A stretch of DNA of 64,000 nt from Methanofastidiosum sp. (GCA_020854815.1 JAHKLW010000043.1:3170-67169); one strand, 5' to 3'. Counted from the first letter of the stretch, positions 1 to 15,027 are shown. Numbers and translations: made by a program. The notes: generated from the sequence alone by a model not told the origin.

Positions 1-1080
1 TAGTCTTTTAGCTATCAGGCCTTCAAGAAGATCCTCAGACTCAGCCTTTTTGGCGAGGCTGATCTCTTTCTTTTGACCTGCAGGAACTGTCTGTGGAGTT
101 CCCTTTCCACTTACCTTTGTAGCATCCTGGGCCAGAACTATTAACGTGGAAAACTCCTTGCTGTAAAGCTCGTCTATTCTGGCCTCAGGATCCACACACT
201 TACCGATCTTTGTTTCCGCCAAAACTATCTGCTTGACAAGTGGCTTTTTTTCGATGGCAATGTTTTTGTTCATCGCCTCCACTTCAGCTAATGCCTTGGC
301 GACCTCTTTGTTGTCTACCATTGTTTTTCCTCCTGCAATGCTCATGGGCATTGCATTTTCAATTACTTTGGATCTATACGGGAATCTAATTGCTGTGTTT
401 GGGTCCTGCGGCAAAAAGCATTTTTTATCTTTTTGGCACTTGGGAATGATTGCTATGTGGTCCGCTATGTCGATGTCCCCAATTGCTACCTTTGGGCTGC
501 TCCCTCCAATCATTGATAGATCCAGATTAGCATGCTTATCGTCTAAAAGAAAATCATACATCATTGCAGTCAAACTAGGCTCGTAGTACGATGCTACAAT
601 TGTTCCAACGTCAGGGCCTTCATGTGTTGACTCTGGTGTTGCAAGATCATGATCAACGTATCGTAACGGCTTGTTTCTAAAAAGTGGCGATATCCTCTCA
701 ACATCCTTTGCTGATAGGGTAACATAAGTTCCATCCTTCGCTTTGTATCTGCCTGGTGTAAGCCCTATTGCAGTGTGAATAGTCTTACCTGTCTTAGGGC
801 ATGGCCTTTCGGCTGCCAGAGTAAATTCAGTCAGGTAATACTGCGCATTCTCTACAAAGTTAGGCTCGTAAGGTGCCAGTACTACGGTGACGGTCTTATC
901 GGGTCCTGGATTTATATCACGGACATTGAAATCTTTTAGGGCCTCTTTGATCTTCTCGACCATGGCCTGATCTAGCTGCTCTATCGGCTCCTGGGACTGT
1001 TGCTCCGGCTGTTGCTGCTGTAGTTCTGGCTTTCCCTGCTCCTGGGCAATATCTGTCATCACGTTCTTTGAGGGTGTCAT
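1..1080 (-). CDS. Putative phage head (capsid/scaffold-like) protein, 3' part outside window; not in supplied ORF track
   Basis: Hand-translated every codon from ATG at 1080..1078 down to position 1 with no stop (about 360 aa, MTPSKNVMTDIAQEQGKPELQQQQ...). Q-rich N-terminus. It lies downstream of the terminase-portal-repeat protein genes in the minus-strand head module. Confidence 0.45.
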   Translation of the reverse strand, partial: MTPSKNVMTDIAQEQGKPELQQQQPEQQSQEPIEQLDQAMVEKIKEALKDFNVRDINPGPDKTVTVVLAPYEPNFVENAQYYLTEFTLAAERPCPKTGKTIHTAIGLTPGRYKAKDGTYVTLSAKDVERISPLFRNKPLRYVDHDLATPESTHEGPDVGTIVASYYEPSLTAMMYDFLLDDKHANLDLSMIGGSSPKVAIGDIDIADHIAIIPKCQKDKKCFLPQDPNTAIRFPYRSKVIENAMPMSIAGGKTMVDNKEVAKALAEVEAMNKNIAIEKKPLVKQIVLAETKIGKCVDPEARIDELYSKEFSTLIVLAQDATKVSGKGTPQTVPAGQKKEISLAKKAESEDLLEGLIAKRL

Positions 1081-1081
1081 T

Positions 1082-2326
1082 TTAGCCCTCCTTTGTCCTG
1101 ATGTACTCGATTGATGTTATTGCTCCTGCGGTCTCCCCAACTGTCCCAGCTGATACCTGTACCTGCACGGCTGCGATTCCGTATAGTTCTGGAATAACTA
1201 CTTCAATTAACTGGTCTGCATCGCTGTCAAGCTCTATGTAGTCCTCAGTCGCTGGTATTGTTGCATATGGGCATTTTACCCTGTTGTGGTCCATCAAGAA
1301 CAGATCCGTGTCGCCTACCTCTGTCTTTGCAAGGAATTTTAATCGTGCATTCTGGGAGCTATTGATCTCCACTTTTACATATAGGGCCAGAGAGTCCCAT
1401 CCCTGGACACCGATTGCATCCCCTATATCGTTGAATGTTGCAGTTAGAGTTGCATAATTCATTGTCATTGCCAAGGCTGTGTTTATTGGTGCTGCTTCAA
1501 ATGCCACTAGCTGGATTGATGCATTTCCTGTATGGGTTGTTACTGCAGTGCATGTCAGGTCTGTTACTGCATCTAGCTCTGCTATCAATTCAGAAAGAAG
1601 ATTTCTATCTGCATGTGTGAGATCATACGTTGCATCTGCCGGGGTGTACGTCAGAGTTTTGGCTGTGTTTATTGGTGCTGCTTCCAAGGTGTCAAGAAGT
1701 GCCGAGTCTGTATCTCCTGATATTTCTGTGGCTATTGTGCATGTCAGGTCGGCCTCTGCATGAAGTATTGCTATGATCTCTGTAAAGGTGTTTTTTGCCG
1801 CATTTGTAAGATCGTGTGTCTCATCTGCCGGGGTGTATGTTGCTGTGACTGCTTCAGCCACTAGATCTGTTTCCACCATTGCATCCAAAAGATTTGAATT
1901 GCTGGCCCCTGTTGCCCCTTCATCTATAGTGCATGTGATCCCTTCAACTGCATTGAGGACCGATACCATCTTTGTGATTGTATCCTTGTCACCGTCTGCA
2001 AATGCATAGTTTGTAGGGGTGCCGTCTATTGTTAGAATTACCTTTGTAGCATCTATTGTGATTGTTGCAGTTTCCTCTGCTGTCGGGGTGTAGCTTATCG
2101 AGAAAGCATGGACGTTGGCCCTTGCTATTGTCAGGGTGTCTGTTGCCTGGGCGACTGTGGCCGTTCCTGTACCTGTGTATGTTAGTGTGAATCCTTCAAC
2201 ATTTGCTCTGGCTATTGTCAGGGTGTTTGCTGCAAGTGCTGCAGTTGCTGTGCCTGTACCTGTGTATGTTAGAGTGAGTGCAGACACGTTTGCTATACTC
2301 AAACTTTGCTTACTATCTCTTACCAT
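1082..2326 (-). CDS. Thr/Ala-rich repeat protein (Ig-like beta repeats); putative head decoration or fibre protein
   Basis: 414 aa with internal protein repeats (LTYTGTGTATAALAANTLTIARANV x2; about 60-aa TYTPAD...EAAPINTA x2). Matching DNA tandem repeats are present. It sits in the head gene block. Confidence 0.45.
   Translation of the reverse strand: MVRDSKQSLSIANVSALTLTYTGTGTATAALAANTLTIARANVEGFTLTYTGTGTATVAQATDTLTIARANVHAFSISYTPTAEETATITIDATKVILTIDGTPTNYAFADGDKDTITKMVSVLNAVEGITCTIDEGATGASNSNLLDAMVETDLVAEAVTATYTPADETHDLTNAAKNTFTEIIAILHAEADLTCTIATEISGDTDSALLDTLEAAPINTAKTLTYTPADATYDLTHADRNLLSELIAELDAVTDLTCTAVTTHTGNASIQLVAFEAAPINTALAMTMNYATLTATFNDIGDAIGVQGWDSLALYVKVEINSSQNARLKFLAKTEVGDTDLFLMDHNRVKCPYATIPATEDYIELDSDADQLIEVVIPELYGIAAVQVQVSAGTVGETAGAITSIEYIRTKEG
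1476..1850. repeat. Intragenic tandem repeat, about 186-nt unit x2
   Basis: gctgtgtttattggtgctgcttc... recurs at about 1476 and about 1662; catctgccggggtgta recurs at about 1632 and about 1822. Confidence 0.6.
2117..2290. repeat. Intragenic tandem repeat, about 87-nt unit x2
   Basis: ggcccttgctattgtcagggtgt...cctgtacctgtgtatgttag recurs with few mismatches. Confidence 0.6.
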
Positions 2327-2331
2327 TTCTT

Positions 2332-2556
2332 TTATTCCCTCCTGTCAAAAAAACTAATTATTGCTGCTAGTGCGGCCATGAGCCCTATGCCAGAGCAGAG
2401 GCCTAAGAGAAATCCGCCAAGGAAATCCCCTAGCATGTTCCCCTCCTGTAAAATTTCCTGATGATTAATATTGGAATAAGCAGAATTAGGGCCAAGATCT
2501 TGACTAGAAAGCCTCTCATCTGATGCCCTCCGTTGATATGTTTCCTGCTTCCTCAA
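2332..2556 (-). CDS. Small membrane protein (provirus)
   Basis: 74 aa with a hydrophobic C-terminal half (GGFLLGLCSGIGLMAALAAIISFF). Confidence 0.3.
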   Translation of the reverse strand: MRKQETYQRRASDERLSSQDLGPNSAYSNINHQEILQEGNMLGDFLGGFLLGLCSGIGLMAALAAIISFFDRRE

Positions 2557-3727
2557 TCAGCCTTGCGACTACTTCCTGAGTGATCTGCTGGGATTCAGGG
2601 CCTAATGGAATCTTTTGGGTCATCTGGGTGTATCTGCCGACAGCATCTGCTATCTCCTGAAGTATGCGGACATTTGTCAGGGCATCCATCTGATTGACCC
2701 TATCAAAGGTGACCGTTGCTTTGACACCGAGATGCTTCAAATAGATGTATTCAATGAAAGTTTTCAGCTTGTCCTGATTGGGCTTTACTGCCTCATAGAT
2801 CATGAGCTTGATCCTTGCCTCTGTATCTGACTTGTAGGCATCTGCCATGAGGGCGGCCTTTGGGAAGGATAGATCGACAAATATCTGATCTGAGGCTGTG
2901 TCAATCAACTTGTCGACATTCATCTGAACATTTCCGGGGCCCTTGAACTCTACCTCCCAATCCATCGGCACCATGTAGAATGAATCATAGCTCTCATCCT
3001 GGCCCATCTCGTAGACATCGGCTTTCTCTTCATCTGAGGCAGTGTCAGGATATTTGAAAATTGCAAAAGGTTTCCAGAATCTCTTCATCAAGGTCTTTGA
3101 GCCTTTCTTAATTTCCAGGAGCTGCTCAACTGTATGGAAGGCCGGGAGAGCTGCAGAGATGCCATATAAATCGTCTGAAAAGAGCCTCTTCATTATGAAT
3201 ATCTCTATGTTGTTCTTGTCTAAAAACTGGTGATTTCCCTGCTGGGAGATCTCTTTTATCAGCTGCTTTTCATCATCCCAATCTACAATGAAGCTTCTAG
3301 GATCCCTGATCTTGAAGAGGTCCTCTCCTATTTCCACAACCGCACGGCCAAAGATCAGGGCATTTAGAACTAACATCTTTGCCTTGTCGGCCATCATGAC
3401 CTTTTGATTGAATAGATCTATCATGGTCTGCGAGGCCTCATCCTCTGCCCTAGCCTCAAATCCCTTGGCCGTTGCATCTGCAAGCATGTTGAAGGCGGTG
3501 TTCACCTGCCCGCACTTCATGTAGGCATTTAGCCCCAGCTGCATCATTCTCTCTGGGGCAAGGGGCAGGACCTGATCCTCTGCGGTCTTTTTTGTCTCTG
3601 TAAAGAAAGGCCTTGCAAAGGAGAATATCCTGGATACCCCCCTTGCTATAATGTTCTGTTGTTTTTTCTCAGGTGTCTTTCTGGAAAAAGGATTTCTCAT
3701 TGTATATCTATATGTTTGGAGATGCAT
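2516..3727 (-). CDS. Putative portal protein
   Basis: 403 aa. It is the first large gene after the large terminase in the minus-strand head module. Size and position fit a portal, but no motif-level proof. Confidence 0.4.
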   Translation of the reverse strand: MHLQTYRYTMRNPFSRKTPEKKQQNIIARGVSRIFSFARPFFTETKKTAEDQVLPLAPERMMQLGLNAYMKCGQVNTAFNMLADATAKGFEARAEDEASQTMIDLFNQKVMMADKAKMLVLNALIFGRAVVEIGEDLFKIRDPRSFIVDWDDEKQLIKEISQQGNHQFLDKNNIEIFIMKRLFSDDLYGISAALPAFHTVEQLLEIKKGSKTLMKRFWKPFAIFKYPDTASDEEKADVYEMGQDESYDSFYMVPMDWEVEFKGPGNVQMNVDKLIDTASDQIFVDLSFPKAALMADAYKSDTEARIKLMIYEAVKPNQDKLKTFIEYIYLKHLGVKATVTFDRVNQMDALTNVRILQEIADAVGRYTQMTQKIPLGPESQQITQEVVARLIEEAGNISTEGIR

Positions 3728-3747
3728 ATTAAGAAAGGTGTGAAATT

Positions 3748-3784
3748 ATTTAGGCCCTAAAAATGAAATTTAGGCCCTAAATTT
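3748..3784. repeat. Two direct copies of atttaggccctaaa (20-bp period) in the provirus AT-rich intergenic region
   Basis: Copies at 3748-3761 and 3768-3781, plus a third GGCCCTA at 3829-3835. This is the core of the provirus-wide TTAGGGCC motif. Confidence 0.6.
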
Positions 3785-4068
3785 GAACAAATGTCCAGTT
3801 TTATAAATCTGTCAAGAGGTCAAATCGAGGCCCTATTTTTAGGGGTAGGGGTTTGCGGGTTACAGCGGACATAAAAAAATTATATACCTAGTAGTAATAT
3901 ACTATAATTCTGGCCTTAAAAATAGAATTATTTATATTTTGTCAACACTAAATAAAACTCTAATTAACTTAAAAATTATCAATGGTATATGCAAAATGAA
4001 AATATAAATGAATACTAGGGGAGTAAGAAGCAATAATATAACTTTACCTATCCTCATAATATCTCCTA

Positions 4069-4197
4069 CTAATTTTTTAATCTGGCCAGTTCTACCTCTC
4101 GTCTTGGTATAAGGATGTGGCACTCGCTATAGTCCTCAGCGCTGCAGATCTCCTGCCAGTCGCACCCTATACAGTTACAAGGGGTATTATTTTCCAT
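4069..4197 (-). CDS. Small Cys-rich protein (42 aa), hypothetical
   Basis: MENNTPCNCIGCDWQEICSAEDYSECHILIPRREVELARLKN. Its start overlaps the stop of the upstream small ORF (ATGGAAAATAA). Below the ORF-track size cutoff. Confidence 0.25.
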   Translation of the reverse strand: MENNTPCNCIGCDWQEICSAEDYSECHILIPRREVELARLKN

Positions 4198-4339
4198 CTT
4201 TCTCCTCATCGTCTATGATCTGGACCCTTACTTTTCGGCCAATCCAATCTCTTGGTACGGTGACAGCTCCCCCGCCTCCGCTTTTTGTTACCGTGGCCTC
4301 AAGCCATCCTTTTTCCTTATCAAATCGTATTACCGCCAT
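4187..4339 (-). CDS. AbrB/MazE/SpoVT-like small DNA-binding protein (50 aa)
   Basis: MAVIRFDKEKGWLEATVTKSGGGGAVTVPRDWIGRKVRVQIIDDEEKDGK. The VTVPRDWIG...V.V segment resembles a swapped-hairpin AbrB/MazE fold. Below the ORF-track size cutoff. Confidence 0.35.
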   Translation of the reverse strand: MAVIRFDKEKGWLEATVTKSGGGGAVTVPRDWIGRKVRVQIIDDEEKDGK

Positions 4340-4443
4340 GATGTATATTCCTTTATTTATCTTTATATATCTTTCCGTGTTTAGACCGAAAGCTTTATAT
4401 ATAAGTAATAGTAAGGATTAATAAGGATAAATAAAGAGGTAAT

Positions 4444-4635
4444 ATGATGGATAAGCAAACTGCAATTAGAATGTTTGAAGCAAGAAAGACCTCTATTGAA
4501 GGGGCCATAAAAACTAGATCTGAAGGTAAGAACGACTTCTCCAACTGGAGGCTTGTGTCAGATGAGAAGCTTGAAGGAATACTCTTTGAGGTCAAGAACG
4601 TCCTCAATATACTAAATTTTGTGGAGGGGAATTAA
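4444..4635 (+). CDS. Hypothetical protein (provirus, plus-strand module)
   Basis: 63 aa. First of three translationally coupled plus-strand ORFs, with AT-rich upstream promoter-like sequence. Confidence 0.4.
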   Translation: MMDKQTAIRMFEARKTSIEGAIKTRSEGKNDFSNWRLVSDEKLEGILFEVKNVLNILNFVEGN

Positions 4636-4886
4636 TGAGCCTCTCCAAGGACGATTTGAGATCACTCAGGAGGTACCTCAAGAAGAACTGCCCAGGCCTT
4701 AAAATTACCACTGGCCGGGGTGGATGGCACAGGATGACCTACGTCAGGGGCTCTGGCGAGGGGCAGAAATTCACAGAAGAGGAAGTCCAATTCCTCACTA
4801 AGATAGGGCTTTTACCCTGCAGGAACTTCTCCAGCATTAATATGTTCCAGGCGGAAAAAATATTAGAGGAGGTGATTAGAGCATGA
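4635..4886 (+). CDS. Hypothetical protein (provirus)
   Basis: 83 aa. Overlaps the previous stop (ATGA coupling). Confidence 0.4.
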   Translation: MSLSKDDLRSLRRYLKKNCPGLKITTGRGGWHRMTYVRGSGEGQKFTEEEVQFLTKIGLLPCRNFSSINMFQAEKILEEVIRA

Positions 4887-5263
4887 GCATTGAAGAAGAT
4901 GCTATTAGGATAGTAAATGAGATGGTCAAGCAGATAGGAGATCTTGGAATACCTACACCCGATATGGTCCTTGACTGCTATACTAGAGTTTGGTCCACAA
5001 TGTACATCCAGAGCTCAAAGAACTGCTATGGCAATTCTGGCCCTAGAAATGAGGCCAAGCCAGTAACTCCAGGACCTGAAGATGACCCTATCGTTGCTGC
5101 ACTAAAGAGCATGGACGGATGGGGATATCCTGACAAGATTGCAAAGGCCCTGAATAGCACAGAGTCAGCCGTTGTCCCCCTGATAGAAAATGCACTTGCC
5201 AACGGTAAGATCTACCAGGCCAAGAAGGGCTACTATTCTTTGACTGACAAGCCTAAAAAGTAA
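4883..5263 (+). CDS. Hypothetical protein, possible wHTH C-terminus (provirus)
   Basis: 126 aa. Coupled to the previous ORF and convergent with the terminase gene. Confidence 0.4.
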   Translation: MSIEEDAIRIVNEMVKQIGDLGIPTPDMVLDCYTRVWSTMYIQSSKNCYGNSGPRNEAKPVTPGPEDDPIVAALKSMDGWGYPDKIAKALNSTESAVVPLIENALANGKIYQAKKGYYSLTDKPKK

Positions 5264-6740
5264 ATGCATTTTTATTTTTATATTTCCCTTTTATTATCCT
5301 GCTTCCTTTTATTTGAGGCTTTTTAAATCTCAGGACCCCCATGGCGATTAATAGTGTATCAACATGATCATCATGCTGGCCGACTAGATGGGTGAATCTC
5401 ACATTTCCTGCTGCAGTTACTTCCTTTGTGAAGTCTAAAAATTCTTTTTTTATCTTATCGTCAGTTGAATAGATCTTAATCCTTCCCTCATGGAAATACC
5501 TTGCAAGTGCTTCTACTGCGGTGTTCTTTGATATGGTCCTTCTCTTTACACCGTGTTCCACTCTCTGGTGCTCGGATATTCCAGCAGAGAGCATGCAGCC
5601 TTCGACATTGATATTTTTAGGGCCAAGGGCAGCGGTCAGGACCTCTATCTGATTCTCGCCAACTCCAATATCTGGGAAGATCGCATAAGGCTTTGGCCCT
5701 AATTTTAAGGCCAGCTCTATTGTCTTCTTTGTGACGTATGTATAGGGAGACTGGAAAGAGTGATATTGGACCACTGCAATGTTTTCAGGATCTGTCACGT
5801 CAATAATGGCTATTACCGATTTGTCTCCTGTCAAGAGGGATTTGCCCCAGTCTATGCAGTAGATATATTTTCTCTGCGGATCAGGAGGGACGTACTCTCC
5901 AGGAACAAAAGCCGCCTCAACTTCATCGTAGTCAAAGGGATTGTCTAGGCCTCCTTCAAAGGAGTTCTCATACTGCATTTGGAATATGATCGGGTTGTCA
6001 TCTTTTGCCGATTTGAGGAAGTCCTCCTGCTGTTTGTACTCCTGCTTTGTTATGTATTTTTTCTGCTGCTCTAATGCCTCCCAGCAGCTCACTTTATGGA
6101 CACTGTATTTCCCTGATGTCACGATGTTGTACCAGTCCGCACCCTTCCCGTACTTTCCCCAGGAAGAGGATGCAAGTATCAGTTTACCGCCAGTCTTTAG
6201 TAGTGTTGGCCTTAAAACTGAGGATATGATCGAATCCGCATTCTGTATCCTTCCGACCTCATCAACTAGGGCCAGATGTGTTGAATCCCCTACAGCCGAT
6301 TCCCCGTCTTCAGATAGGGCCATTGCTACCATGCCAGAGCCGTTTGAAAGGGATATCTCCGTCTTTGCCCATCTCAAATCCGTATCTCCGCCCTTTCTAG
6401 TCATTGGCTTTATCAGGTCATTCCAATATGGGGAGCTCCTCAAAAGCTTCTTTGTCCTGTCAAGGATCCTTACCCCATGTTTTAGCCTTACTCCAGTTGC
6501 TGTTATGAAAAAATAATCGTTCAATAACAGCTGCGATGCCGCCTTGACGGATAGTGTCATAGTCTTCCCGGTCTGCCTTGACTGGAGCCATGCCTGGAAC
6601 TGCGAATCATCCCTGATGAATTCCCTCTCATAGGGATATAAGAAAAGCTCCTTCCCTTCCCAGGTGAAAAAATCTGTTGCAAAGTCCTCTGGAAATTTTT
6701 TATAATACTCGTTAATCTTCTGGGAAAGTCCGGGTATCAT
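5253..6740 (-). CDS. terL: Terminase large subunit
   Basis: 495 aa. Walker A QSRQTGKT, Walker B-like LALVDE, nuclease-domain acidic motifs YCIDWG and HDDHVD. Confidence 0.85.
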   Translation of the reverse strand: MIPGLSQKINEYYKKFPEDFATDFFTWEGKELFLYPYEREFIRDDSQFQAWLQSRQTGKTMTLSVKAASQLLLNDYFFITATGVRLKHGVRILDRTKKLLRSSPYWNDLIKPMTRKGGDTDLRWAKTEISLSNGSGMVAMALSEDGESAVGDSTHLALVDEVGRIQNADSIISSVLRPTLLKTGGKLILASSSWGKYGKGADWYNIVTSGKYSVHKVSCWEALEQQKKYITKQEYKQQEDFLKSAKDDNPIIFQMQYENSFEGGLDNPFDYDEVEAAFVPGEYVPPDPQRKYIYCIDWGKSLLTGDKSVIAIIDVTDPENIAVVQYHSFQSPYTYVTKKTIELALKLGPKPYAIFPDIGVGENQIEVLTAALGPKNINVEGCMLSAGISEHQRVEHGVKRRTISKNTAVEALARYFHEGRIKIYSTDDKIKKEFLDFTKEVTAAGNVRFTHLVGQHDDHVDTLLIAMGVLRFKKPQIKGSRIIKGKYKNKNAFTF

Positions 6741-6748
6741 CCATGCAC

Positions 6749-7267
6749 TTACTCCAGTATGAATGACTTAAAATAGGTGAAGAATCCCGCCTGGATATCT
6801 TCCTCGGGGATATTTAAATTTTGGGCCAAAAGCTTACGGTACCAGTAGAGCTGCGAGCCTACGTTATAGTTCCTGTAATTCTTGAAGTCCCATATCTCAA
6901 TCTTTCCGGCATTGAATCTTATGATGTCTATGTGGCCAGAGACGTTGTCAAAGAAGGAGTATATCGGGACCTCTGCTGCTACCGTCAGATCGTCATGATC
7001 TATCATGTAGTTCTCCACCTGATCATGTGGGCTCCCAGGGTAGAGGCGGAAGGCTTCTTTGGCCATCTCCGGGAGCTCTGTATCAATCTCTATGTAGTGC
7101 TTGTACTTCGGCTCCCTCATCACTGAGGCCCTGCCCATGAAAGGGAAGAGTTCTTTATGCCACCTGTCGCCTTCCTCATAGACTTTTTTTAGGTAACTAT
7201 CCAGGCTATCTATAGTTTTTTTATTCACTTTGTGCTGGAAAAGGTAATACGGGGCCTTTACCCCCAT
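6749..7267 (-). CDS. Hypothetical protein between TerS-like and TerL
   Basis: 172 aa, no recognizable motif. Confidence 0.4.
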   Translation of the reverse strand: MGVKAPYYLFQHKVNKKTIDSLDSYLKKVYEEGDRWHKELFPFMGRASVMREPKYKHYIEIDTELPEMAKEAFRLYPGSPHDQVENYMIDHDDLTVAAEVPIYSFFDNVSGHIDIIRFNAGKIEIWDFKNYRNYNVGSQLYWYRKLLAQNLNIPEEDIQAGFFTYFKSFILE

Positions 7268-7293
7268 CTTTTTTGTAATGATCTCATCATCTG

Positions 7294-7827
7294 TTATTTG
7301 AAATCCCTCCTCTTCATTCTTAGGGCCACAATGGCCTCAATCTCCGTGATGCTTGCCGGGGGCTTTTCTCCGCCGTCCTGGTCCAGTTCATCTAATATCT
7401 GCATGATAGTCTTTGCTATTGCGGAAACATTGTCAAGGGGAACGTCAAGATATGTGAGGTACTGCATCCTTGCCATGAGCTTTATCAGGGTGTCCATCCT
7501 CACTTGAGTTGCCGCAGCTTCTGGATCCAATTCAAATTCTGGCAGGAGACTTTCGGCAATCTCCTTGTAGTACTTGCTCTTGTCCATCGAGTTCTGCAGT
7601 AACTTGCTATACTTGCCATGCTTTGTGTGGGTGAGTGCGACTTTCAATCTGCCCTGAGCAGTTTTAGGGCCAGTAGAAGATCCGCCGTGGAGCTTGCATC
7701 TCCCCTCACCCGGGTGATCAGTGCCCCACCCTGCAGGCCTCTTGCACGGCTTTTTCGATTGCTTTGCATTTGCCCCGCATGTAGGATAGGTAACTTCCTT
7801 TTCTTCCCCCGGCCCTAGTAGCAGCAT
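7294..7827 (-). CDS. Terminase small subunit-like protein (Zn-ribbon CxnC...GRCKLHGG motif)
   Basis: CGANAKQSKKPCKRPAGWGTDHPGEGRCKLHGGSSTGPKT matches the GWGTDH...GRCxxHGG signature of a widespread phage small-terminase family. Lies upstream of terL. Confidence 0.5.
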   Translation of the reverse strand: MLLLGPGEEKEVTYPTCGANAKQSKKPCKRPAGWGTDHPGEGRCKLHGGSSTGPKTAQGRLKVALTHTKHGKYSKLLQNSMDKSKYYKEIAESLLPEFELDPEAAATQVRMDTLIKLMARMQYLTYLDVPLDNVSAIAKTIMQILDELDQDGGEKPPASITEIEAIVALRMKRRDFK

Positions 7828-7866
7828 CTAGTTTTTCTCCTTTGAAAATAAAAAAAATAATAAGGC

Positions 7867-8187
7867 CTATGAGCAGGGCGGGCTTACAGTGCGGTCAACT
7901 TTAGGGCAGTTGACGGTGACAGTTCCAGTTATGACGTACTTGTAAATCTCCTGAGTCCTGTTCAGATTGTCGATGTACTCCGTTGCCTTAAGCCATCCAG
8001 CAGCCTTGAACTGCAGGAATACCTTTGATTCCTTGTAATTACTGTTGCTTGTATTCAGCCCAGCTGGCTCCCTTAGCTGGTACCAGAACTCGTTGCCCTC
8101 CCTATTCAGGGTATTGACTAGAACTCCCCTCACCCAGACCTTATTCTTTCTCAACTTGTCGAGATATTCTTTTGCCGATTCAAACAT
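7867..8187 (-). CDS. Hypothetical protein (provirus)
   Basis: 106 aa. Confidence 0.35.
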   Translation of the reverse strand: MFESAKEYLDKLRKNKVWVRGVLVNTLNREGNEFWYQLREPAGLNTSNSNYKESKVFLQFKAAGWLKATEYIDNLNRTQEIYKYVITGTVTVNCPKVDRTVSPPCS

Positions 8188-8200
8188 TGCAACACCTCGT

Positions 8201-8434
8201 TTACTCCTTTATCAGTTTGGCCTTGAGCATGGCAGCTCTTAGCTTCTTAGCCTCCGCCTCTACTTTGTCTAATTGGACCAATCCGAATAGAACTAAGATA
8301 GATATGACTGCTGACCCTATCGTTTGCAGTAGATCTGCATAGTTGCTGAAGCCTAACTGGCCCACGAGATTCACTAGAATTGCAAGGATTGCCAATAATT
8401 GTGTTTTATTCAGTGCCATAGCAAACACCTCCAT
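8201..8434 (-). CDS. Small two-TM membrane protein (holin-like?)
   Basis: 77 aa with two hydrophobic segments and a charged C-terminus. Confidence 0.3.
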   Translation of the reverse strand: MEVFAMALNKTQLLAILAILVNLVGQLGFSNYADLLQTIGSAVISILVLFGLVQLDKVEAEAKKLRAAMLKAKLIKE

Positions 8435-8630
8435 ATAGCTAAAGTGCTTATGGGCATATTAAGAAAGGTGTGAGAAAAAAAGAAAAATTATTTCTTGATT
8501 CTATCTCTGCAACGGCTACATAGATTTTCTGCTTGCCCGTGATAATTGTCTCCTTGCCGAACTGGCTCAGTCCAATAACACCCTCCTGGACATGCATAGT
8601 GATCAGAACATCCGCAAATTCTACATACTG

Positions 8631-8867
8631 TCAATTTATCAATCCCTGCAGCCAATTCTCAAATATTTTAACAGAATGTACAGCCCATACCCTATCCTGT
8701 TCTTTTTGTTCTTCTGTTAGATCAATATAATCTATCCATAATTGCTGCCATCGATTGAATCTTTCAAGGCTTATTTTCTCAGTTTCTGCTATGTTTTTAC
8801 TCCAGTTCATCCACTGCTTATGCTCCAAGTCTGATAGCCTTTCAATTAGTTCCTGTCTTGAATTCAT
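8631..8867 (-). CDS. Hypothetical protein (provirus)
   Basis: 78 aa, coupled to the upstream ORF. Confidence 0.35.
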   Translation of the reverse strand: MNSRQELIERLSDLEHKQWMNWSKNIAETEKISLERFNRWQQLWIDYIDLTEEQKEQDRVWAVHSVKIFENWLQGLIN

Positions 8868-9232
8868 TTCATCCCCCGTATGAATCTGATCACCTGTGAG
8901 TCTGAGAACTGCTTGAAGGCCTCGGGCATGGCTTTGACGACTTCCTTCATCTGTGCGATATCGACTTCCTTTTCACCCTTCTCTAGCTCCGTTAAAATTA
9001 GGGCCAGAGCTTCTGGAGAGATTGGCGGCTCGTCAACATTGATGTCCTTTTCCAGGAGGTCTAAGATCTTCTTTATCATCTCGTCATGGCTTTTGAGCTG
9101 CACTTTTATGTCGAAAAGCTCCGACTCAATTTTAGGGCCAGTGTCGATGGTGATGGTGGAGTACGGTACCTCAGGGTATTTTGAGAGCCGGGCATCGGGC
9201 CTGTTTTTAGGGCCAGTTTCAGTGGGCCTCAT
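8864..9232 (-). CDS. Hypothetical protein (provirus)
   Basis: 122 aa. Contains three copies of the TTAGGGCCAG motif. Confidence 0.4.
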   Translation of the reverse strand: MRPTETGPKNRPDARLSKYPEVPYSTITIDTGPKIESELFDIKVQLKSHDEMIKKILDLLEKDINVDEPPISPEALALILTELEKGEKEVDIAQMKEVVKAMPEAFKQFSDSQVIRFIRGMK

Positions 9233-9410
9233 GATGGTATCTTTTGCATTTGCTTTCTCAACTATACCTATTTTACCATCTCCTTTTTCACTGTCTTTAG
9301 AAGCTCCTCTACCCCGGCCTTATCTGGGCCCTCGCACTGGATGTTGATCTTTGTGCCTGTGAATGGATTGTTTTCCTTGTAGAATATCTTCCAGGGTGTT
9401 GCTTCTTCTG

Positions 9411-9764
9411 TCAAGTTGAGGCCTCCAAGATTGTCTTTTGCCCTTCTGGCAGCAGGAATTTAGCTATGTCTGCAAATGTTAATTCTGGAAAATCAGAAGA
9501 AAAAAATAGATTATCCCTAGTTACCTTGTCGCCCATCCTCTGGAGTATTCCATCATGCCCCTGCCAATCGCCTATAATCCTTTCAATGTCTTGGAGAACT
9601 CTTTCAAGATTTTCCTTCGTGATCTCTTTCATGTAGCCATTGTAATGACAATTCCCGTAATGCTTGCCAGCTGAATAGTTGAATCTCTCTTTCCCGGCAT
9701 ATGTTGTTTTTTCTATCGTGATGGTGTACTTTGTTCCTTTTGGAATCTTGTAGTCCCTGCTCAT
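9411..9764 (-). CDS. Hypothetical protein (provirus)
   Basis: 117 aa. Confidence 0.35.
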   Translation of the reverse strand: MSRDYKIPKGTKYTITIEKTTYAGKERFNYSAGKHYGNCHYNGYMKEITKENLERVLQDIERIIGDWQGHDGILQRMGDKVTRDNLFFSSDFPELTFADIAKFLLPEGQKTILEAST

Positions 9765-10057
9765 TTAATTTCCTCAAAGTAGTGCATCCATCCTTTCTCG
9801 TCAGGACTATACTTGCCATAAAGCTCTGTCCAGAACTTGACAAAATCCTCGGCTGTTTTGAATCCGCACCTCGGGTAAAGGAAGGCCTCTATCGTCTTTA
9901 AGTGGCACTCGAACACGTTGGTGAACTTGTAGGTCTTGCCGAATGCCTCGAATGTGTCTCCATTATCGCCCTTCTTTTCAGTCCTTATGGTTGCTACCTT
10001 TGTGCCTTTCTTAAGCGGGGCCTTGAATCTCTCGTTGAATTTGAGCTCTACTTTCAT
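9761..10057 (-). CDS. ASCH-domain-like protein
   Basis: 98 aa. LKKGTKVATIR fits the ASCH GxKxxExR motif. Confidence 0.4.
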   Translation of the reverse strand: MKVELKFNERFKAPLKKGTKVATIRTEKKGDNGDTFEAFGKTYKFTNVFECHLKTIEAFLYPRCGFKTAEDFVKFWTELYGKYSPDEKGWMHYFEEIK

Positions 10058-10332
10058 CCCGCTGCCACTTCCTTCTCCTTTGATGGAGTGTGGTCAAGCT
10101 TCTGCTGGAAATCTTCCTCGAGGGAGTCTTCCTTGTGGAGCTCTGCCATGATGCTCATTATCCTGTTCATGTATATCCTCTTGCAGTCCTCGCAAAGAGG
10201 CGAGCCTTTCACCTTGTCAACGTAGGCCACTGCCCCGTACTCCTTCGGCTTTGAAATCTCGAATGTGATCTTGGCTTCGTATGTCGCTAGATATCCACAT
10301 ATGACACATGGGTCCAACTCGTCATCAGTCAT
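10054..10332 (-). CDS. Zn-ribbon protein
   Basis: 92 aa, with CVICG...CEDCKR. Confidence 0.35.
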   Translation of the reverse strand: MTDDELDPCVICGYLATYEAKITFEISKPKEYGAVAYVDKVKGSPLCEDCKRIYMNRIMSIMAELHKEDSLEEDFQQKLDHTPSKEKEVAAG

Positions 10333-10448
10333 TCACTAGCCTCTTTGCCTCTTCCATGTGCCATTCTTTTCTTCCTGGCATGTTTTCTGATAAGGGATCT
10401 TCTGCAAGCTCCCTGTGTGCTTTTGCAGATTCAAGATCTGCTATTCTT

Positions 10449-10718
10449 TCACTTTCTGTTCTTTTTTCCATTTCTTTTTTCATCTCCTATTTTTTCTAAT
10501 TTCAGTACATGTATGCAGGGCCTCTTCCTGTTGTACGAATCAGGACATGAGCACCAGTAGTCCGGCCACCCTTCATCAGGCTTGAGATCTATCGATGCGA
10601 TATGCCCCTTCGTAGTTATGCCCCAGAGAAACGAGCCTGCCCTGCCTGTGGCCTTAAATTCAACTTCTGGAATCTTGGCCAGCTGCCCTTTTGTCGGCTC
10701 GTACTCGGATAGCTTCAT
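10449..10718 (-). CDS. SWIM zinc-finger protein
   Basis: 89 aa. WCSCPDSYNRKRPCIHV fits the CxCxnCxH SWIM pattern. Confidence 0.45.
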   Translation of the reverse strand: MKLSEYEPTKGQLAKIPEVEFKATGRAGSFLWGITTKGHIASIDLKPDEGWPDYWCSCPDSYNRKRPCIHVLKLEKIGDEKRNGKKNRK

Positions 10719-11077
10719 TTACCACCTCTAGTTAATTTTAGGGCCAGCTCACAGTCTGGATGTGCCCCGTGCTTCAATTCTGCAAATGTCTGGTAGAATA
10801 GTCCGCAGATTGGGCATGTTTCCTTAGGGGTAATTCTTGATTCGATTTTGAATATGAATCTCCTGTTTGATAATAGAATTGTTACAAGACTTAGACGGTA
10901 GTAATAGATTCCAAATAATCTATCATCCTGTCTTTCTTTCCTTCCAATATCGACATTAATAAAAAATGAGAATATCTTCAGAAAGAAGTAGCCACGTCTG
11001 ATGATCATGTCAAAATGCCTAATGGTCTTCATGGCCTGCCCCCGATGTTCTTCACTTTGAAATAGAAGCCCTTCCAC
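10715..11077 (-). CDS. Hypothetical protein with C-terminal Zn finger
   Basis: 120 aa, with CPICG...HPDC. Confidence 0.35.
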   Translation of the reverse strand: MEGLLFQSEEHRGQAMKTIRHFDMIIRRGYFFLKIFSFFINVDIGRKERQDDRLFGIYYYRLSLVTILLSNRRFIFKIESRITPKETCPICGLFYQTFAELKHGAHPDCELALKLTRGGK

Positions 11078-11523
11078 TGCGATAATGCCCTCTCAACTAT
11101 GCCCCTGAGCTGCTGCTCCTTGTCATATGTGGGCATCTGCTCTAAAGTTCTCAACGTGAGAGACACCTGAATTAGATCAGATATCAGGAGGTCCAACTGT
11201 TCTGGCCCTAACTTTATCATCTGTGTGATTTCCCTCTTGCCGTCAGAATCAATCTTTGGGAAAAGAGATATCGATATGAAGGCCTTGTTATTCATCGTGC
11301 CACGTTCAGGGAGTATTCCTGCAGAGGCTGTGACAAAGTATTTATCCAGAGGGTAGCCGTTCCTGATCTCAAGTTCTACCCCATTCTTTGAAGTTATGAG
11401 GGCCGTTTCCCTCCTGTCTCTCGATAATCCTTTTCTCGGTGTGTCAGGAATGCCAGCGAATAGCTTCTGCTGTGCCACGTCAAGGGGATCTTCTACCTTA
11501 TAGGTCAGAAAAATCCCTCCCAA
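11029..11523 (-). CDS. Hypothetical protein (provirus)
   Basis: 164 aa. Confidence 0.35.
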   Translation of the reverse strand: MGGIFLTYKVEDPLDVAQQKLFAGIPDTPRKGLSRDRRETALITSKNGVELEIRNGYPLDKYFVTASAGILPERGTMNNKAFISISLFPKIDSDGKREITQMIKLGPEQLDLLISDLIQVSLTLRTLEQMPTYDKEQQLRGIVERALSQWKGFYFKVKNIGGRP

Positions 11524-12478
11524 GCCTTGAATTCAAGAAGTCCATCTGTGCATGAAGCCCCTCTCCATAAGCCTCAATCTTTGACCTGTGGGCATCACAT
11601 GCAGTAAATCCATACATTATTGTAGTGGCCTTATTACTGCAGAAGGCGCATGTATAGCTACTGGCCTTAGAATTAAGATCTAATTTCTCCAGGTATGCTA
11701 GAATAGCTTTTAGATATAGCGGCATCCTGGCAAAGTCCATGGCGGCTTCCGGTGTCTCAAACTCTAGCTCAGTGCCTTCCTGATCTGAATCGTCCATGTG
11801 GCAGTCCTGGCCTTGTATGGTGAACTGGTCGAATTTTCCAAAGTTGAATTTAGGATCTTCAAGTACAAAGTGGGGCTTTCTATTGATCTTCCCAAAAGAA
11901 AGCTTTAGGCCAAGGAAACTGTTCTCTAGCTTCTGTGCATAGACGTTTGCAAGATTCAAAGCCTCGCTAAGTAGATCATAGGAGTTTGATTTCCTCTCAA
12001 TCTTGGGGTAAATTATCACACTTTTGGTAGTTTTTTCTATTGTTACAGCTGGCAGTTTTGTGTATTCCTTGGCCCAATTGTTCAAGTTTACCTCTTTGTC
12101 AAGGGTAAATGTGCTAGGAGCGGACAAGATATCATATCTTATGCCTATATTATGCATGGAAAATGAGGCTTTTGTGTTCTCATCCCCAGTGAGGGATTTA
12201 TTGGAACATTGGAACTTTGATGGAACTTTGTTCCCAGTATTGCTTAACACCCTGTATAGCTTAGGCCACTCCGATACCTGTTCGATTAATCCAGACTTTT
12301 CCAGCCTTTGAATTGCCCTAGATACTTTATTCCTTCTTATTCCCATGTTTCGGGCAATCTGTGCAGGATAAAGGCCAGAGTCCAGAAGTGATAAAATCCT
12401 CTCATCTACCAAAGTTCCATCTATTGTTCCACTCTCTGGAACTTTCTGCCCTGCACGATTGGAAGCTTTGCCCTGCAC
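11498..12478 (-). CDS. Winged-helix DNA-binding protein with C-terminal Cys cluster (regulator or replication-associated)
   Basis: 326 aa. wHTH-like LYPAQIARNMGIRRNKVSRAIQRLEKSGLIEQ, plus CAFCSNK...CDAH. Confidence 0.4.
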   Translation of the reverse strand: MQGKASNRAGQKVPESGTIDGTLVDERILSLLDSGLYPAQIARNMGIRRNKVSRAIQRLEKSGLIEQVSEWPKLYRVLSNTGNKVPSKFQCSNKSLTGDENTKASFSMHNIGIRYDILSAPSTFTLDKEVNLNNWAKEYTKLPAVTIEKTTKSVIIYPKIERKSNSYDLLSEALNLANVYAQKLENSFLGLKLSFGKINRKPHFVLEDPKFNFGKFDQFTIQGQDCHMDDSDQEGTELEFETPEAAMDFARMPLYLKAILAYLEKLDLNSKASSYTCAFCSNKATTIMYGFTACDAHRSKIEAYGEGLHAQMDFLNSRLGRDFSDL

Positions 12479-12480
12479 GA

Positions 12481-12906
12481 TTACGACCTCATGCTTTCCC
12501 TTACGGAGAGGTACTGCTCCCCTCTCTTGGTGACGTAGTATTTCCTCGCTTCATCACAGGAGACCAATCGGTCCATGAAGGCCTTGTCAAATGCGGAAAA
12601 TGAGGGGCACTCTGGATTCTTCTTTATGTCTATGATTGAAGTTGGCCCTAATTTTAGAAGCAGCTTTACGAGCCTGTACTCCTGGTCCGCCATGCTCTCC
12701 CACTGGTAGATGGGCTTATCGTTAGACTTCTGGCCAATCTCTACGTCCCGCCTCTTCATCATCTTCTTCAGCCATTCACATTGGGCTGTGGCTGGCATCT
12801 TCTCCCAGATCATCTCCCGAAGATCGTCATGGTCAAGGAAGTTTACGGCCTCTTCCATGGAGAGTGTGATCTTAATCTCCTCACATTTCCCTGGCAGAAA
12901 TATCAC
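12481..12906 (-). CDS. Hypothetical protein (provirus)
   Basis: 141 aa. Confidence 0.35.
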   Translation of the reverse strand: MIFLPGKCEEIKITLSMEEAVNFLDHDDLREMIWEKMPATAQCEWLKKMMKRRDVEIGQKSNDKPIYQWESMADQEYRLVKLLLKLGPTSIIDIKKNPECPSFSAFDKAFMDRLVSCDEARKYYVTKRGEQYLSVRESMRS

Positions 12907-14006
12907 CCGAATGTGAACTTTGTCTTAAGCGAATCCATAACTAGGCCTATCGGATTTGCAAGGGTGATAACGTCAGAGCCTGCAAACAATAGGGCCACAG
13001 GCCTTCCGTCCATATCCATTATGAGGCTTCCAGAATCTCCGCCGTCTGAGAAGGGGTAGGGATTACCTGATTCGATTACTATCTGGCTCTCAAATAGTAT
13101 GCTCCCGCAGTCGTACCATATCCTTGATGCTGCATTTATTCCCGTTATCTTTCCCTCGGTGTAGAATGTTGTCCTTCCCACCTTGTTGACCCTTAGGCCG
13201 ACCTTTGGATTTAGCAGCGGCGATTTAATCGGGAGATCTCCATACTGCCCTAGCTTGCTCTCTATGTCCTTGTTGATCTTTGCTAGGCAGCAATCTACAT
13301 AGTTCACCCCGTTAGGATCTATAAGCACTGCTTCATGCACTGTGGCAACTGCATCATCAGGGCTTACTCCATCGTCATAGTCCCCAGGCTGTATGACCGT
13401 ATCTCCTTTCTTTCCTTTGTTCTCGTTGTTTAAGACATGAAGATTTGAGAGAATGAATCTCTCTCCTGTTTCTATCTCAGGGGGATCTTCTGGATCTGGT
13501 GTTGGAGGTTCGGGGGTATCATCATTAAAAAAAAGCCTCATTAGCCAGTTCCATATCCTGCTTAAGATACTGCCACCTGAAAGAGATCTCTTTACAGCAC
13601 TTCTAATTCCAATGACTACAGCACCTAAAGTTCCGGCTGTGATGTCAATATGCCCTACTGAGATGCCTGCCTTAATCGGCCTCCATCTCTCCTGCTGCGG
13701 CTCTTTTGTTTGTGTCCTGATTGGGGGATTTGCATATATCCTTCCCACCTGAACTACGTCTGTAATCTTTCCGTCAAGCTTTCTAGGGAGCATGTCTATC
13801 TTCTGCTTTTTGAGCTCCTTTGGCGATAGCTTCTTTTCTACCCCGATTACTATGGCATGTACAGGTTTGCCGTTTTCATCGTAGACTGTCTTCTCTTCCT
13901 TCTTCTTGACACCCTCATAGATTATCTGGACGTTGGGATTAGTTTTCAGAATGTCAATATTGCTCAGATGATCCCCTCCTGGAAGTACCTGGAGTATGAG
14001 CTGCAC
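12903..14006 (-). CDS. Trypsin-like (S1 family) serine peptidase with Pro/Glu-rich linker
   Basis: 367 aa. GDSGS active-site Ser motif with upstream candidate His (TVHEA) and Asp (DCCLAK). PEPPTPDPEDPPE linker. Confidence 0.55.
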   Translation of the reverse strand: MQLILQVLPGGDHLSNIDILKTNPNVQIIYEGVKKKEEKTVYDENGKPVHAIVIGVEKKLSPKELKKQKIDMLPRKLDGKITDVVQVGRIYANPPIRTQTKEPQQERWRPIKAGISVGHIDITAGTLGAVVIGIRSAVKRSLSGGSILSRIWNWLMRLFFNDDTPEPPTPDPEDPPEIETGERFILSNLHVLNNENKGKKGDTVIQPGDYDDGVSPDDAVATVHEAVLIDPNGVNYVDCCLAKINKDIESKLGQYGDLPIKSPLLNPKVGLRVNKVGRTTFYTEGKITGINAASRIWYDCGSILFESQIVIESGNPYPFSDGGDSGSLIMDMDGRPVALLFAGSDVITLANPIGLVMDSLKTKFTFG

Positions 14007-14440
14007 TCAATTTTTCTTATTCTAAAAATAGGGCCAAAATTGTCAACTGCCTTGATGTATGTGAGATCTCCAAAAATAGAAAGGCCTTTTATCATCCTCT
14101 TCAGCTGGGCCATCTTGTAGCTTTTTGGCGGCAGGGCTGTCATTGCATCAGTTAAGTATGCTGCAGCTGCCAGCTGCTTGGCCTTGTTGATCATGTCCCT
14201 GATCTCTATCCTTTGAGGATTTATGTCGCCCTCTTTGTTCTGGAGGTCATTTTTCAAGTAGATGTGGTAGAAGATAGCATCGCTTGGAGGGAGCCTTACC
14301 TCGCTTAAGATATCGACAGTCTCACCCCTGGCATTCTTCAAGGGCATGACGTAGGCATTTGGGATTGTGATATCCTCGGCTATTTCTATGCTTGTGGAGA
14401 GTATGAGCCTGTTGTCATTTGTCCCAACTATATGTATCAA
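13964..14440 (-). CDS. Hypothetical protein near att/tRNA end
   Basis: 158 aa, no integrase motifs recognized. Confidence 0.35.
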   Translation of the reverse strand: MIHIVGTNDNRLILSTSIEIAEDITIPNAYVMPLKNARGETVDILSEVRLPPSDAIFYHIYLKNDLQNKEGDINPQRIEIRDMINKAKQLAAAAYLTDAMTALPPKSYKMAQLKRMIKGLSIFGDLTYIKAVDNFGPIFRIRKIECSSYSRYFQEGII

Positions 14441-14787
14441 GTGGAGGCCTCCTCTTTTGCATAGCAGAATAGGAGCATGCCATTGTGGTAATGGTATGGG
14501 ATGTATGTTGGCTGAAGACTTCCATCCTTTCTTCTTGATAGTATGGGCTTGACATTTTCCGCTATGGTGATTGGCACAGACACATATGTCCTCTTGGTAT
14601 TTGAGTAATGGACCGGGAGATTCTTAGCATCCATCTCCTCATCAAACGATAAGGCCACCCATTTCATGTTCTCGTCTATTAAAAATCGGACATAACGAGG
14701 CTTCAGCTGCTGCTCTTCTAGGGCCCTGTTGATGTACATTCTTCTCGGGTAGAGCAAGATCTTGCCCTCTCCTTTGGAGTGCTTCAT
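14437..14787 (-). CDS. Hypothetical protein adjacent to tRNA-Leu
   Basis: 116 aa, coupled (ATGA) to the downstream ORF. Confidence 0.35.
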   Translation of the reverse strand: MKHSKGEGKILLYPRRMYINRALEEQQLKPRYVRFLIDENMKWVALSFDEEMDAKNLPVHYSNTKRTYVSVPITIAENVKPILSRRKDGSLQPTYIPYHYHNGMLLFCYAKEEAST

Positions 14788-14939
14788 CTCCTTTAAGGTA
14801 GGCTCTACCTCTCTAAATTCAAACTTTCCAAAATCGATTTCTTCTTTGGCAAGATTTGTCCTGCCGGGTATTACAAGTTTTTTTTCTTCCGTTTAAGACA
14901 CCTTTGGGATTAGTCCCCAAAGAGTAAAGAAAAGACCAG

Positions 14940-15027
14940 TGGTGCGGGAGCTGGGATTTGAACCCAGGAAGACCTACATCACAGGGTCCTAAGCCCTGCA
15001 CCTTTGACCAGGCTCGGCAACCCCCGC
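14940..15027 (-). tRNA. tRNA-Leu (anticodon UAG), type II long variable arm, CCA encoded
   Basis: Reverse complement folds as a cloverleaf: acceptor GCGGGGG/CTCCCGC, anticodon stem CAGGG/CCCTG with loop CTTAGGA, 14-nt variable arm, T-arm CTGGGTTCAAATCCCAG. The GC jump occurs exactly at its 3' end. Confidence 0.85.

Follow-up and report, generated by a model that had tools for sequence, protein, structure and literature searches.

A short word repeated across a clade of Methanofastidiosum proviruses is selected at the DNA level and is probably a protein-binding site

The 64,000-nucleotide stretch of Methanofastidiosum sp. DNA considered here (GCA_020854815.1 JAHKLW010000043.1:3170-67169, referred to as the window, with positions counted from its first letter) raises the question of why a single short word should be repeated so often in the part of it that is viral. 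The G+C content is 43-47% in bases 1 to ~14940 and 29-37% in the remainder of the window, and both the G+C content and the density of the word fall at a tRNA-Leu gene (14940-15027, - strand), the sole match in a scan for known RNA families (Rfam). This break, together with the tailed-virus genes of the G+C-rich part, indicates that bases 1 to ~14940 are the right-hand part of a tailed provirus, which extends past the left edge of the window. A first-pass annotation of this DNA had listed at least 13 copies of the word in ~15 kb of the provirus, and had argued that the DNA itself was under selection rather than the encoded protein. Candidatus Methanofastidiosum has no cultured representative and no described virus was found for it, and almost nothing is known of the control of lysogeny, transcription, and packaging in the tailed viruses of methanogens.

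The word is 14-15 bases in length, YAAWWT-TARGGCCA, and occurs about once per 600 bases in the provirus. The logo of the site is Y A a W W T T A R G G C C A r, with non-random flanks that reach 6 bases beyond the core. This core, TAGGGCCA, is present in 17 copies in 1-14940, where ~0.34 would be expected from base composition, and in an unbiased k-mer scan it is the top over-represented 8-mer of the provirus, with its extensions leading the 9- and 10-mers. When the enriched variant TAAGGCCA is included (TARGGCCA), there are 24 copies in the 14.9 kb of provirus, 19 of them inside genes, and 7 in the 49 kb of host DNA (0.14 per kb), so that the whole window carries 31 copies versus 3.5 in shuffled sequences. 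The longer form TTAGGGCCAG is present exactly in 6 copies, all within 7664-11211, compared to 0.05 in dinucleotide shuffles of the window, and with up to one mismatch there are 21 copies, 16 of these in 1-14940, compared to 2.9 expected.

The original observation is confirmed by these counts, and is stronger than first stated. All 13 of the copies listed in the first-pass annotation exist, at positions that are displaced by 0-7 bases from those reported (8998-9007, for example, rather than 8994-9004, and 14028-14037 rather than 14021-14032); the copy near 14030 is present, but matches in the 8-base core only. The host part had been credited with one good copy and a near-match, where there are in fact four copies of TAGGGCCA (19322, 37332, 40334, and 45846), at a density more than 10-fold below that of the provirus. 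Elsewhere in the host genus, 3 copies of TAGGGCCA are present in 77 kb of other Methanofastidiosum genomes. The difference between virus and host is also seen per occurrence of GGGCC, which is preceded by TA in 23 of 47 cases in the provirus and in 6 of 30 cases in the host.

The copies occupy three frame/strand combinations, unrelated genes, and non-coding DNA, and the peptides originally given for them (TGPK, LGPE, LALK, and FGPI, in different frames) are correct. Codon-preserving shuffles of the provirus (500 trials) yielded 1.22 +/- 1.06 copies of TAGGGCCA, with a maximum of 5, versus the 17 observed. Neither of the outcomes that the first-pass annotation had named as refuting, similar counts in such shuffles or an equal frequency per GGGCC in the host, was obtained. 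In a complete genome of a related virus, such shuffles gave 4.0 copies versus 36 observed outside the structural block, and 0.77 versus 6 inside it. If a position is taken to be permissible where a choice among synonymous codons could create the 8-mer without altering the protein, then 14 of the 20 antisense and 3 of the 12 sense permissible positions in the window are realized, and most of those unfilled hold the word in the other orientation or hold TAAGGCCA. In the large terminase (TerL), homologues of 43% identity have VKP for LRP, WNPK for LGPK, and LPEGD for ALSE at the sites. The TerL residues differ from those of distant relatives exactly where the sites are, so that the word has shaped the protein sequence and not the reverse. 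This demonstrates that selection acts on the DNA, at synonymous and even at amino-acid-changing positions, as had been argued at the outset, and the case illustrates how far a DNA-level signal can reach in shaping the proteins of a virus. The density of sites is lower in the capsid and tail genes because there are fewer permissible positions there. The enrichment over codon shuffles is 8-9-fold in these genes as elsewhere, on which basis a signal specific to the early region was rejected.

Searches with the large terminase and a structural protein identified relatives only in metagenomes of methanogenic digesters and of hydrocarbon degradation, and no close relatives were found among GenBank phages, IMG/VR, or GTDB genomes. 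The word is present in all of the relatives (G+C 44%) in which the 414-aa structural protein is at least 61% identical, and is absent from those at 48% identity or less (L099, L102, and L010-L015). Every member of the word-bearing clade has it at or close to the head of its 8-mer ranking. TAGGGCCA is the top-ranking 8-mer in L100; in L101 the top rank is held by TAAGGCCA, with TAGGGCCA among the top seven. The complete 30.5-kb genome, which was rebuilt from L001 and L096, contains 26 copies of TAGGGCCA and 23 of TAAGGCCA, 49 in all, or ~1.6 copies per kb, which is the site density across the genomes of the clade. Of 16 window copies, ten have been kept intact by all of the aligned relatives (~80% nucleotide identity), compared to 11% of background 8-mers (P 1.2e-6), and this conservation above background includes third codon positions. 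There is also turnover, in that one window copy is unique and two are common to a single relative each; the unique copy, being found in this provirus alone, is probably a recent gain. At position 3 of orthologous sites, G and A can replace one another.

The provirus adjoins tRNA-Leu and its relatives encode an integrase, in keeping with a temperate lifestyle, and L007 is integrated at the same tRNA-Leu as the window provirus. The pyruvate kinase of the host is 83-91% identical to its Candidatus Methanofastidiosum homologues, and a copy of a winged-helix protein of the provirus, 100% identical, has been recorded from a Methanofastidiosum metagenome-assembled genome. The word is specific to one clade of temperate tailed viruses of Methanofastidiosum, and can serve as a practical marker for this clade in metagenomes. 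Since the word-bearing relatives are all in the same host genus, with L007 at the same tRNA-Leu, the suggestion that it might be a target carried over from some other host is not supported.

The arrangement of the copies is also not random. The full site is a 20-bp dyad, TGGCCYTA-N4-TARGGCCA, around an AT-rich palindromic core YTAAWWTTAR, and most copies consist of one full half and the core. The dyad within the TerL gene is present in all of the genomes, and the complete relative has two further dyads, within a radical-SAM gene. Close inverted pairs all have a 4-base spacer and are present at 3 non-orthologous loci, versus 0.024 expected, a number reached by 0 of 20000 random placements. Direct pairs at exactly 20 bp are present at 2 loci (P 0.001). 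The tandem pair upstream of the portal gene is found in 7 of 7 aligned genomes, in a very conserved non-coding stretch, as the palindrome TTTAGGGCCTAAA each time in the window and as TTCATTTTTARGGCCA twice in the relatives; copies adjoin TATA-like boxes in 3880-3926. The fixed spacing of the dyads and the two-helical-turn spacing of the tandem pair make these sites resemble those of a dimeric, cooperatively binding protein, and are not as would be expected for signals that are read from a single strand.

The reading that is best in agreement with these features is that the word is a selected, clade-specific, double-strand protein-binding site, with a probability of about 0.7. Among the roles that had been listed for it, that of a site for a viral DNA-binding protein appears to be the best supported, from the dyad and tandem geometry. 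The word would be the strong half of a dyad-type site, which the virus clade has spread across its whole genome by selection. A virus-encoded dimeric DNA-binding protein would occupy these sites, binding cooperatively at the 20-bp-spaced tandem pair before the portal/late operon and singly or as a dyad inside genes. The most probable use would be promoter control together with roadblocks or silencing along the genes, in the manner of the 'stoperators' of the L5 repressor. That the sites are used for genome-wide transcriptional control of the provirus is a tentative proposal, and its chances are put a little short of even.

Three proteins encoded in the provirus are candidates for the reader of the word. 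The first is a 326-aa protein with an N-terminal winged helix, of the TrmB/MarR/ArsR type, followed by a beta-rich domain of unknown fold. Its predicted structure has a confident winged helix like those of ArsR/MarR/PadR-type regulators, this being the only part to match solved structures, and the recognition helix is invariant. The family is wider and uncharacterised, with 43 cluster representatives at E <1e-10. Its beta-rich domain, which has no match among solved structures, carries conserved His, Pro-His, Asp, Ser, and Glu residues. Identification of this protein as a Rep-Arvir rolling-circle initiator (PMC13107129) was rejected, as the domain order differs and there is no Pfam match to the catalytic domain. 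The second candidate is a 126-aa protein with a C-terminal winged-helix-like region, encoded in the sole opposite-strand gene cluster. L099, from which the word is absent, encodes a 66%-identical match, and this counts against the protein as the reader. No relationship is detectable between the two winged-helix proteins, and a PDB-wide sequence search with both did not return an L5-type repressor. The 50-aa DUF2080 protein is too variable for a reader (52-94% identity across the clade).

The third candidate is a protein resembling small terminases (TerS-like), with a HGGxSTG domain. At 97% its amino-acid identity across the clade is the highest in the region (TerL 87%, portal protein 92%). Only 69% of its codons are identical at conserved residues, which is ordinary synonymous divergence. 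Small terminases normally diverge fastest, and conservation as strong as this is unusual. No ParB-like or C1-like protein was detected. With one short word behind ~50 sites per genome, there is a direct experimental handle on whichever protein is the reader.

The closest known parallel for control of this kind is mycobacteriophage L5, in which >20 asymmetric 13-mers over the genome are the 'stoperators' of the repressor, via which one virus protein reportedly silences the prophage (PMC9283540). As with the gp71 stoperators of L5 (Cluster A), there is a temperate tailed virus with >20 asymmetric words of 13-15 bp throughout its genome, which are specific to a clade and are present also at promoters. 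The L5 sites are, however, in promoters and short intergenic gaps, strictly follow the direction of transcription, and are bound by a monomer with two domains, an HTH and a stoperator domain, whereas the copies here are mostly intragenic, with 7 of 49 intergenic in the complete genome, follow no strand rule, and have a geometry that suggests a dimer. In addition, the density here is roughly 3 times higher, with permissible coding positions nearly saturated, and the host is an archaeon with TBP/TFB-type transcription machinery. Since the word is neither confined to intergenic DNA nor strictly oriented, and so lacks two features that define stoperators, it should not be filed as one.

Scattered sites for one regulator on a mobile genome, some close to promoters and others intragenic or far from them, are also known from C1 of P1, which has 17-bp asymmetric operators, and from KorB of RK2, which has 12 OB sites (TTTAGCSGCTAAA); in these there are 12-20 sites per 60-94 kb, far fewer than here. 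The portal-upstream TTTAGGGCCTAAA of the window, a 13-bp palindrome, is shaped like OB, but this palindromic form is peculiar to this provirus, the relatives having TTTTTARGGCCA(G/A).

There are several points that weigh against a regulatory reading. The 49 copies of the complete genome divide into 25 antisense, 17 sense, and 7 intergenic ones, so that there is no strand rule with respect to transcription, and about 85% of the copies are intragenic. The antisense bias of 14:3 in the window is close to what the coding sequence allows (20 versus 12 permissible positions), and a strand rule was rejected because the bias shrinks to 25:17 in the complete genome and coding constraints explain most of it. 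No fixed distance to gene starts was found among the copies, the sole hint being a weak excess at -100 to -50 (8 versus 3.8, P 0.03 uncorrected). The late structural genes and the rest of the genome are equally enriched over codon shuffles, which would suit a global mark more than the control of particular genes. The near-saturation of the sites is more typical of signals of the 'the more the better' kind, such as Chi and uptake sequences, and less so of operators. The most conserved protein is the TerS-like one and not a classical regulator. Lastly, what is shown here is the enrichment of the word, selection on the DNA, conservation, restriction to one clade, and the dyad and tandem geometry, and we infer the binding of a protein, the identity of that protein, and its regulatory effect.

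A further reading, possible although the odds are clearly against it, is that the word is a genome-wide mark of 'self', at ~50 sites per 30-kb genome. A virus-encoded reader would use it to distinguish the DNA of the virus from that of the host, with silencing, packaging, or protection as the purpose. Chi, DNA uptake sequences, the FtsK-orienting polar sequences (KOPS), and the highly iterated palindrome HIP1 are all genome-saturating words, Chi and KOPS being strand-polarised and HIP1 a perfect palindrome. The word resembles these in being 8-12 bp, in its conservation, in its frequency of about one per kb, and in exceeding codon expectation in every reading frame. The known words are marks of the host chromosome, and secondarily of its phages, whereas this word marks only the virus and is rare in the host. 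If this reading were true, the word would be the first Chi- or uptake-like saturating signal owned by a virus rather than its host, and the first in archaea, and selection would have filled nearly every codon context that allows it and changed residues in essential proteins such as TerL. A literature search found no description of a similar word in an archaeal virus, and searching for the word itself gave chance matches only.

The TerS-like protein, or another virus factor, might read the word for encapsidation or for protection during the degradation of host DNA. The virus has the word at a ~10-40-fold higher density than the host, its genome-wide and near-saturating enrichment is like that of signals for which more is better, and 97% conservation of the TerS-like protein is as would be expected of a reader locked to ~50 sites. 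It is this exceptional conservation that keeps a packaging or self-recognition role alive, although there could be other causes for it. There are also 3-4 copies in or just before the TerS-like gene and 3-4 more ~1 kb upstream, and a PD-(D/E)XK nuclease gene lies between the TerS-like and TerL genes. To our knowledge, however, no tailed virus has dispersed packaging signals. The pac and cos sites are single terminase-proximal loci, whereas the copies here are genome-wide, and the fixed-spacer dyad and the tandem pair upstream of the portal gene resemble the operators of dimers, not the sites of a ring-shaped TerS. A role as packaging signal, which was among those first suggested, is on balance unlikely.

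The layout of the logo is that of an archaeal promoter, with 6-7 bp beside an 8-bp AT-rich quasi-palindrome that has TA steps at both ends, in which TAAWWTTA would be the site of TBP and a GGCCY flank would replace the TFB-recognition element (BRE). When read from GGCCC to TAAWWTTA, 14 versus 3 of the window copies point with the genes, a few are 15-50 bp before start codons (7861, 10739, and 14029), and there is the weak excess 50-100 bp upstream of starts noted above. Promoter elements of the virus, or decoys for TBP/TFB, nevertheless have a poor chance of being the explanation. An archaeal core promoter is found about 25 bp upstream of the transcription start, once per transcription unit and in the orientation of the gene, with the BRE beside a TTTAWATA-like box. 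The consensus of the archaeal BRE is purine-rich, unlike the GGCC flank of the word, (C/T)TGGCC(C/T), which is not A-rich either. The promoters of the host in the window, including those of its tRNA genes, are canonical, with TTTATATA-like boxes and A-rich upstream bases. Most copies are deep in genes, six of them in TerL without a downstream gene, their positions and orientations are not tied to genes, with 25:17 in the complete genome and inconsistent spacing to starts, and no TFB-like protein was found in the protein scans. Simple promoters were set aside on the same grounds of variable spacing and mixed orientation. A sigma-70 and terminator scan was uninformative for the role of the sites, and the repeats near cdc6, considered as host origin-recognition boxes, bear no resemblance to the word.

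If the word served DNA metabolism, whether by regulating a nuclease as Chi does, by marking sites of specific nicking or priming, or by favouring recombination where modules are exchanged, this would account for the high density and the presence in all frames, in which the word resembles Chi or nick consensus words, and the virus does encode a RecB/Cas4-like nuclease. The chance of this is slim, given that the strand bias typical of signals read from a single strand is not present and that the dyads and tandem pairs point to double-strand recognition by a dimer. The host genome does not have the word in abundance, so a host enzyme is unlikely to be the reader. With regard to recombination, both junctions of an ~11.5-kb inversion in L001-type genomes are within ~30 bases of copies of the word, which lends weak circumstantial support to the recombination hotspot proposed in the first-pass annotation. 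These junction copies are in direct orientation in L097, and the copies alone cannot therefore explain the inversion; its mediation by the word was set aside.

Four independent assemblies show that L001-type genomes carry the whole portal-to-tail-fibre block (~11.5 kb) in the opposite orientation with respect to the terminase/early block, as seen in L001/L096 (contig k127_34340) against window 1-4100, L007, and L097.

That the word is linked to restriction-modification or methylation, and is kept by a methyltransferase or a repair system that acts on sites with GGCC, as the cyanobacterial highly iterated palindromes might be, is very improbable. The core does contain GGCC, the genome has strong biases of a restriction type in other words, with GGTT/AACC reduced 7-10 fold and CGCG missing, and there are distant relatives without any GGCC. 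Restriction pressure deletes sites, however, and does not multiply them, and the word is enriched ~14-50 fold rather than depleted as avoidance would demand. GGCC itself is only 1.27-fold over trinucleotide expectation, the word is asymmetric and of 8-15 bp, no methyltransferase was found in the window or the complete relative, and the most depleted tetranucleotides do not include the neighbours of GGCC at one deamination step. A connection of GGCC enrichment with GGTT depletion through deamination and repair was rejected for this last reason.

The weakest explanation, that the word arises incidentally from the usage of codons or amino acids (Gly-Pro, Leu-Ala-Leu) or from the shared ancestry of repeated protein segments, agrees with the small set of peptides encoded (xGPK, LGP, and [LMV]AL) and with the one copy that codes for part of the conserved HGGxSTG motif, but has next to no chance against the codon-preserving shuffles, the mixed frames, strands, genes, and non-coding locations, the non-random flanks, and the other residues in distant homologues at the sites.

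The positions of the sites and of the genes discussed are given in Table 1. The proviral genes are almost all on the - strand, and strand assignments of genes were taken from curated or database gene calls.

Table 1. Copies of the word and proviral genes in the window. Peptides are those encoded at the site.
Feature	Position	Strand	Context
TAGGGCC then T	937-943	+	
TAGGGCCA	1382-1389	+	414-aa structural gene, antisense, sense codes LAL; kept in L006, L007
TAGGGCCA	2487-2494	+	directly downstream of portal gene (LGPN); kept in L005, L006, L007
Tandem pair of TAGGGCC	3753-3759 and 3773-3779 (region 3747-3787)	-	20 bp apart, ~55-80 bp upstream of portal start 3700
TAGGGCC then T	3829-3835	-	conserved non-coding region upstream of portal gene
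TAAGGCCA	3911-3918	-	intergenic, adjoins TATA-like boxes (TTATATAC 3880-3887, +)
TAGGGCCA	5038-5045	-	126-aa winged-helix gene (SGPR)
TAGGGCCA	5618-5625	+	TerL (LGPK)
20-bp dyad TGGCCCTA-ATTT-TAAGGCCA (TGGCCCTAATTTTAAGGCCA)	5694-5713	both	TerL, codes ELALKLGPK
Dyad half TAGGGCCA	5694-5701	-	TerL
Dyad half TAAGGCCA	5706-5713	+	TerL
TAAGGCCA	6207-6214	-	TerL, LRP with AGG codon; VKP in distant relatives
TAGGGCCA	6267-6274	+	TerL (LAL); common to L001 only
TAGGGCCA	6315-6322	+	TerL (MAL); kept in all relatives
TAGGGCCA	7321-7328	+	3' end of TerS-like gene (VAL)
TAGGGCCA	7665-7672	+	TerS-like gene, codes TGPK of HGGxSTG motif
TAGGGCC then G	7811-7817	-	close to start of TerS-like gene (LGP)
TAGGGCCA	8999-9006	+	122-aa gene (LAL)
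TAGGGCCA	9133-9140	+	122-aa gene (TGPK); found in this provirus alone
TAGGGCCA	9208-9215	+	122-aa gene (TGPK)
TAAGGCCA	10649-10656	-	SWIM zinc-finger gene
TAGGGCCA	10739-10746	+	LAL; TAAGGCCA at same place in L007
TAGGGCCA	11203-11210	-	sense orientation, LGP
Two TAAGGCCA	11626-11633 and 11662-11669	-	36 bp apart, 326-aa winged-helix gene
TAGGGCCA	12643-12650	-	sense, LGP; degenerate second half-site 4 bases off (12642-12668)
TAGGGCCA	12990-12997	+	protease-like gene (VAL); common to L007 only
TAGGGCCA	14029-14036	+	FGPI; kept in every aligned relative
TAAGGCCA	14650-14657	+	last proviral gene
Portal protein	2516-3727, real start probably 3700	-	
50-aa DUF2080 protein	4187-4339	-	Pfam 25 bits, NCBIfam 34 bits, both past cut-off
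126-aa winged-helix protein	4883-5263	+	phrog_2440 E 7e-4; second candidate reader
Large terminase TerL	5253-6740		
PD-(D/E)XK nuclease	6749-7267		between TerS-like and TerL genes
TerS-like HGGxSTG-domain protein	7294-7827	-	phrog_9231 E 5e-8; NF041373 41 bits; third candidate reader
326-aa winged-helix protein	11498-12478	-	first candidate reader
S64-like protease	12903-14006		

In the relatives there is a 1-base indel between the two candidate ATGs of the portal gene, which would mean that the protein starts at 3700 (MRNPF) and not at 3727. The non-coding ~250 bp upstream of this gene (3690-3930) is almost invariant among seven ~80%-identical genomes (e.g. CGATTTGACCTCTTGACAGATTTAT). The DUF2080 gene is also called in the relatives, and the 68-aa open reading frame that overlaps it (4215-4421, +) is probably spurious.

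GGTT/AACC is nearly absent from these viruses. There are 7 in the genes of the window provirus, compared to 60 in codon-preserving shuffles, and 22 in the complete relative, compared to ~120. The scarcity is common to the window provirus and L001, L005, L006, L007, L097, L100, and L101, with ratios of 0.08-0.17 to trinucleotide expectation; the host ratio is 0.60, and L099 (48% identity) is not depleted. The pattern looks as if the viruses avoid a restriction-type defence whose 4-base target is, unusually, asymmetric. CGCG is absent, or present at no more than 1 site, in the clade genomes checked. L010-L015 and L102, of which the TerL or structural protein is 43% identical, are devoid of GGCC and GATC and have hardly any CTAG, CGCG, or GCGC; for L010-L015 alone, base composition predicts ~29 GGCC. 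In its sequence signature this is textbook multi-site restriction avoidance, and the reverse of what is seen in the clade of the window provirus, which is rich in GGCC.

Viruses usually match the G+C content of their host or fall below it. The provirus has a G+C content of 45% versus 32% for the host, +12 percentage points, and all of its relatives are also richer in G+C. The densest cluster of the word is in the radical-SAM/SPASM gene of the complete relative (~1 kb, L096 1985-2977), which adjoins the integrase and contains seven copies, including two full dyads.

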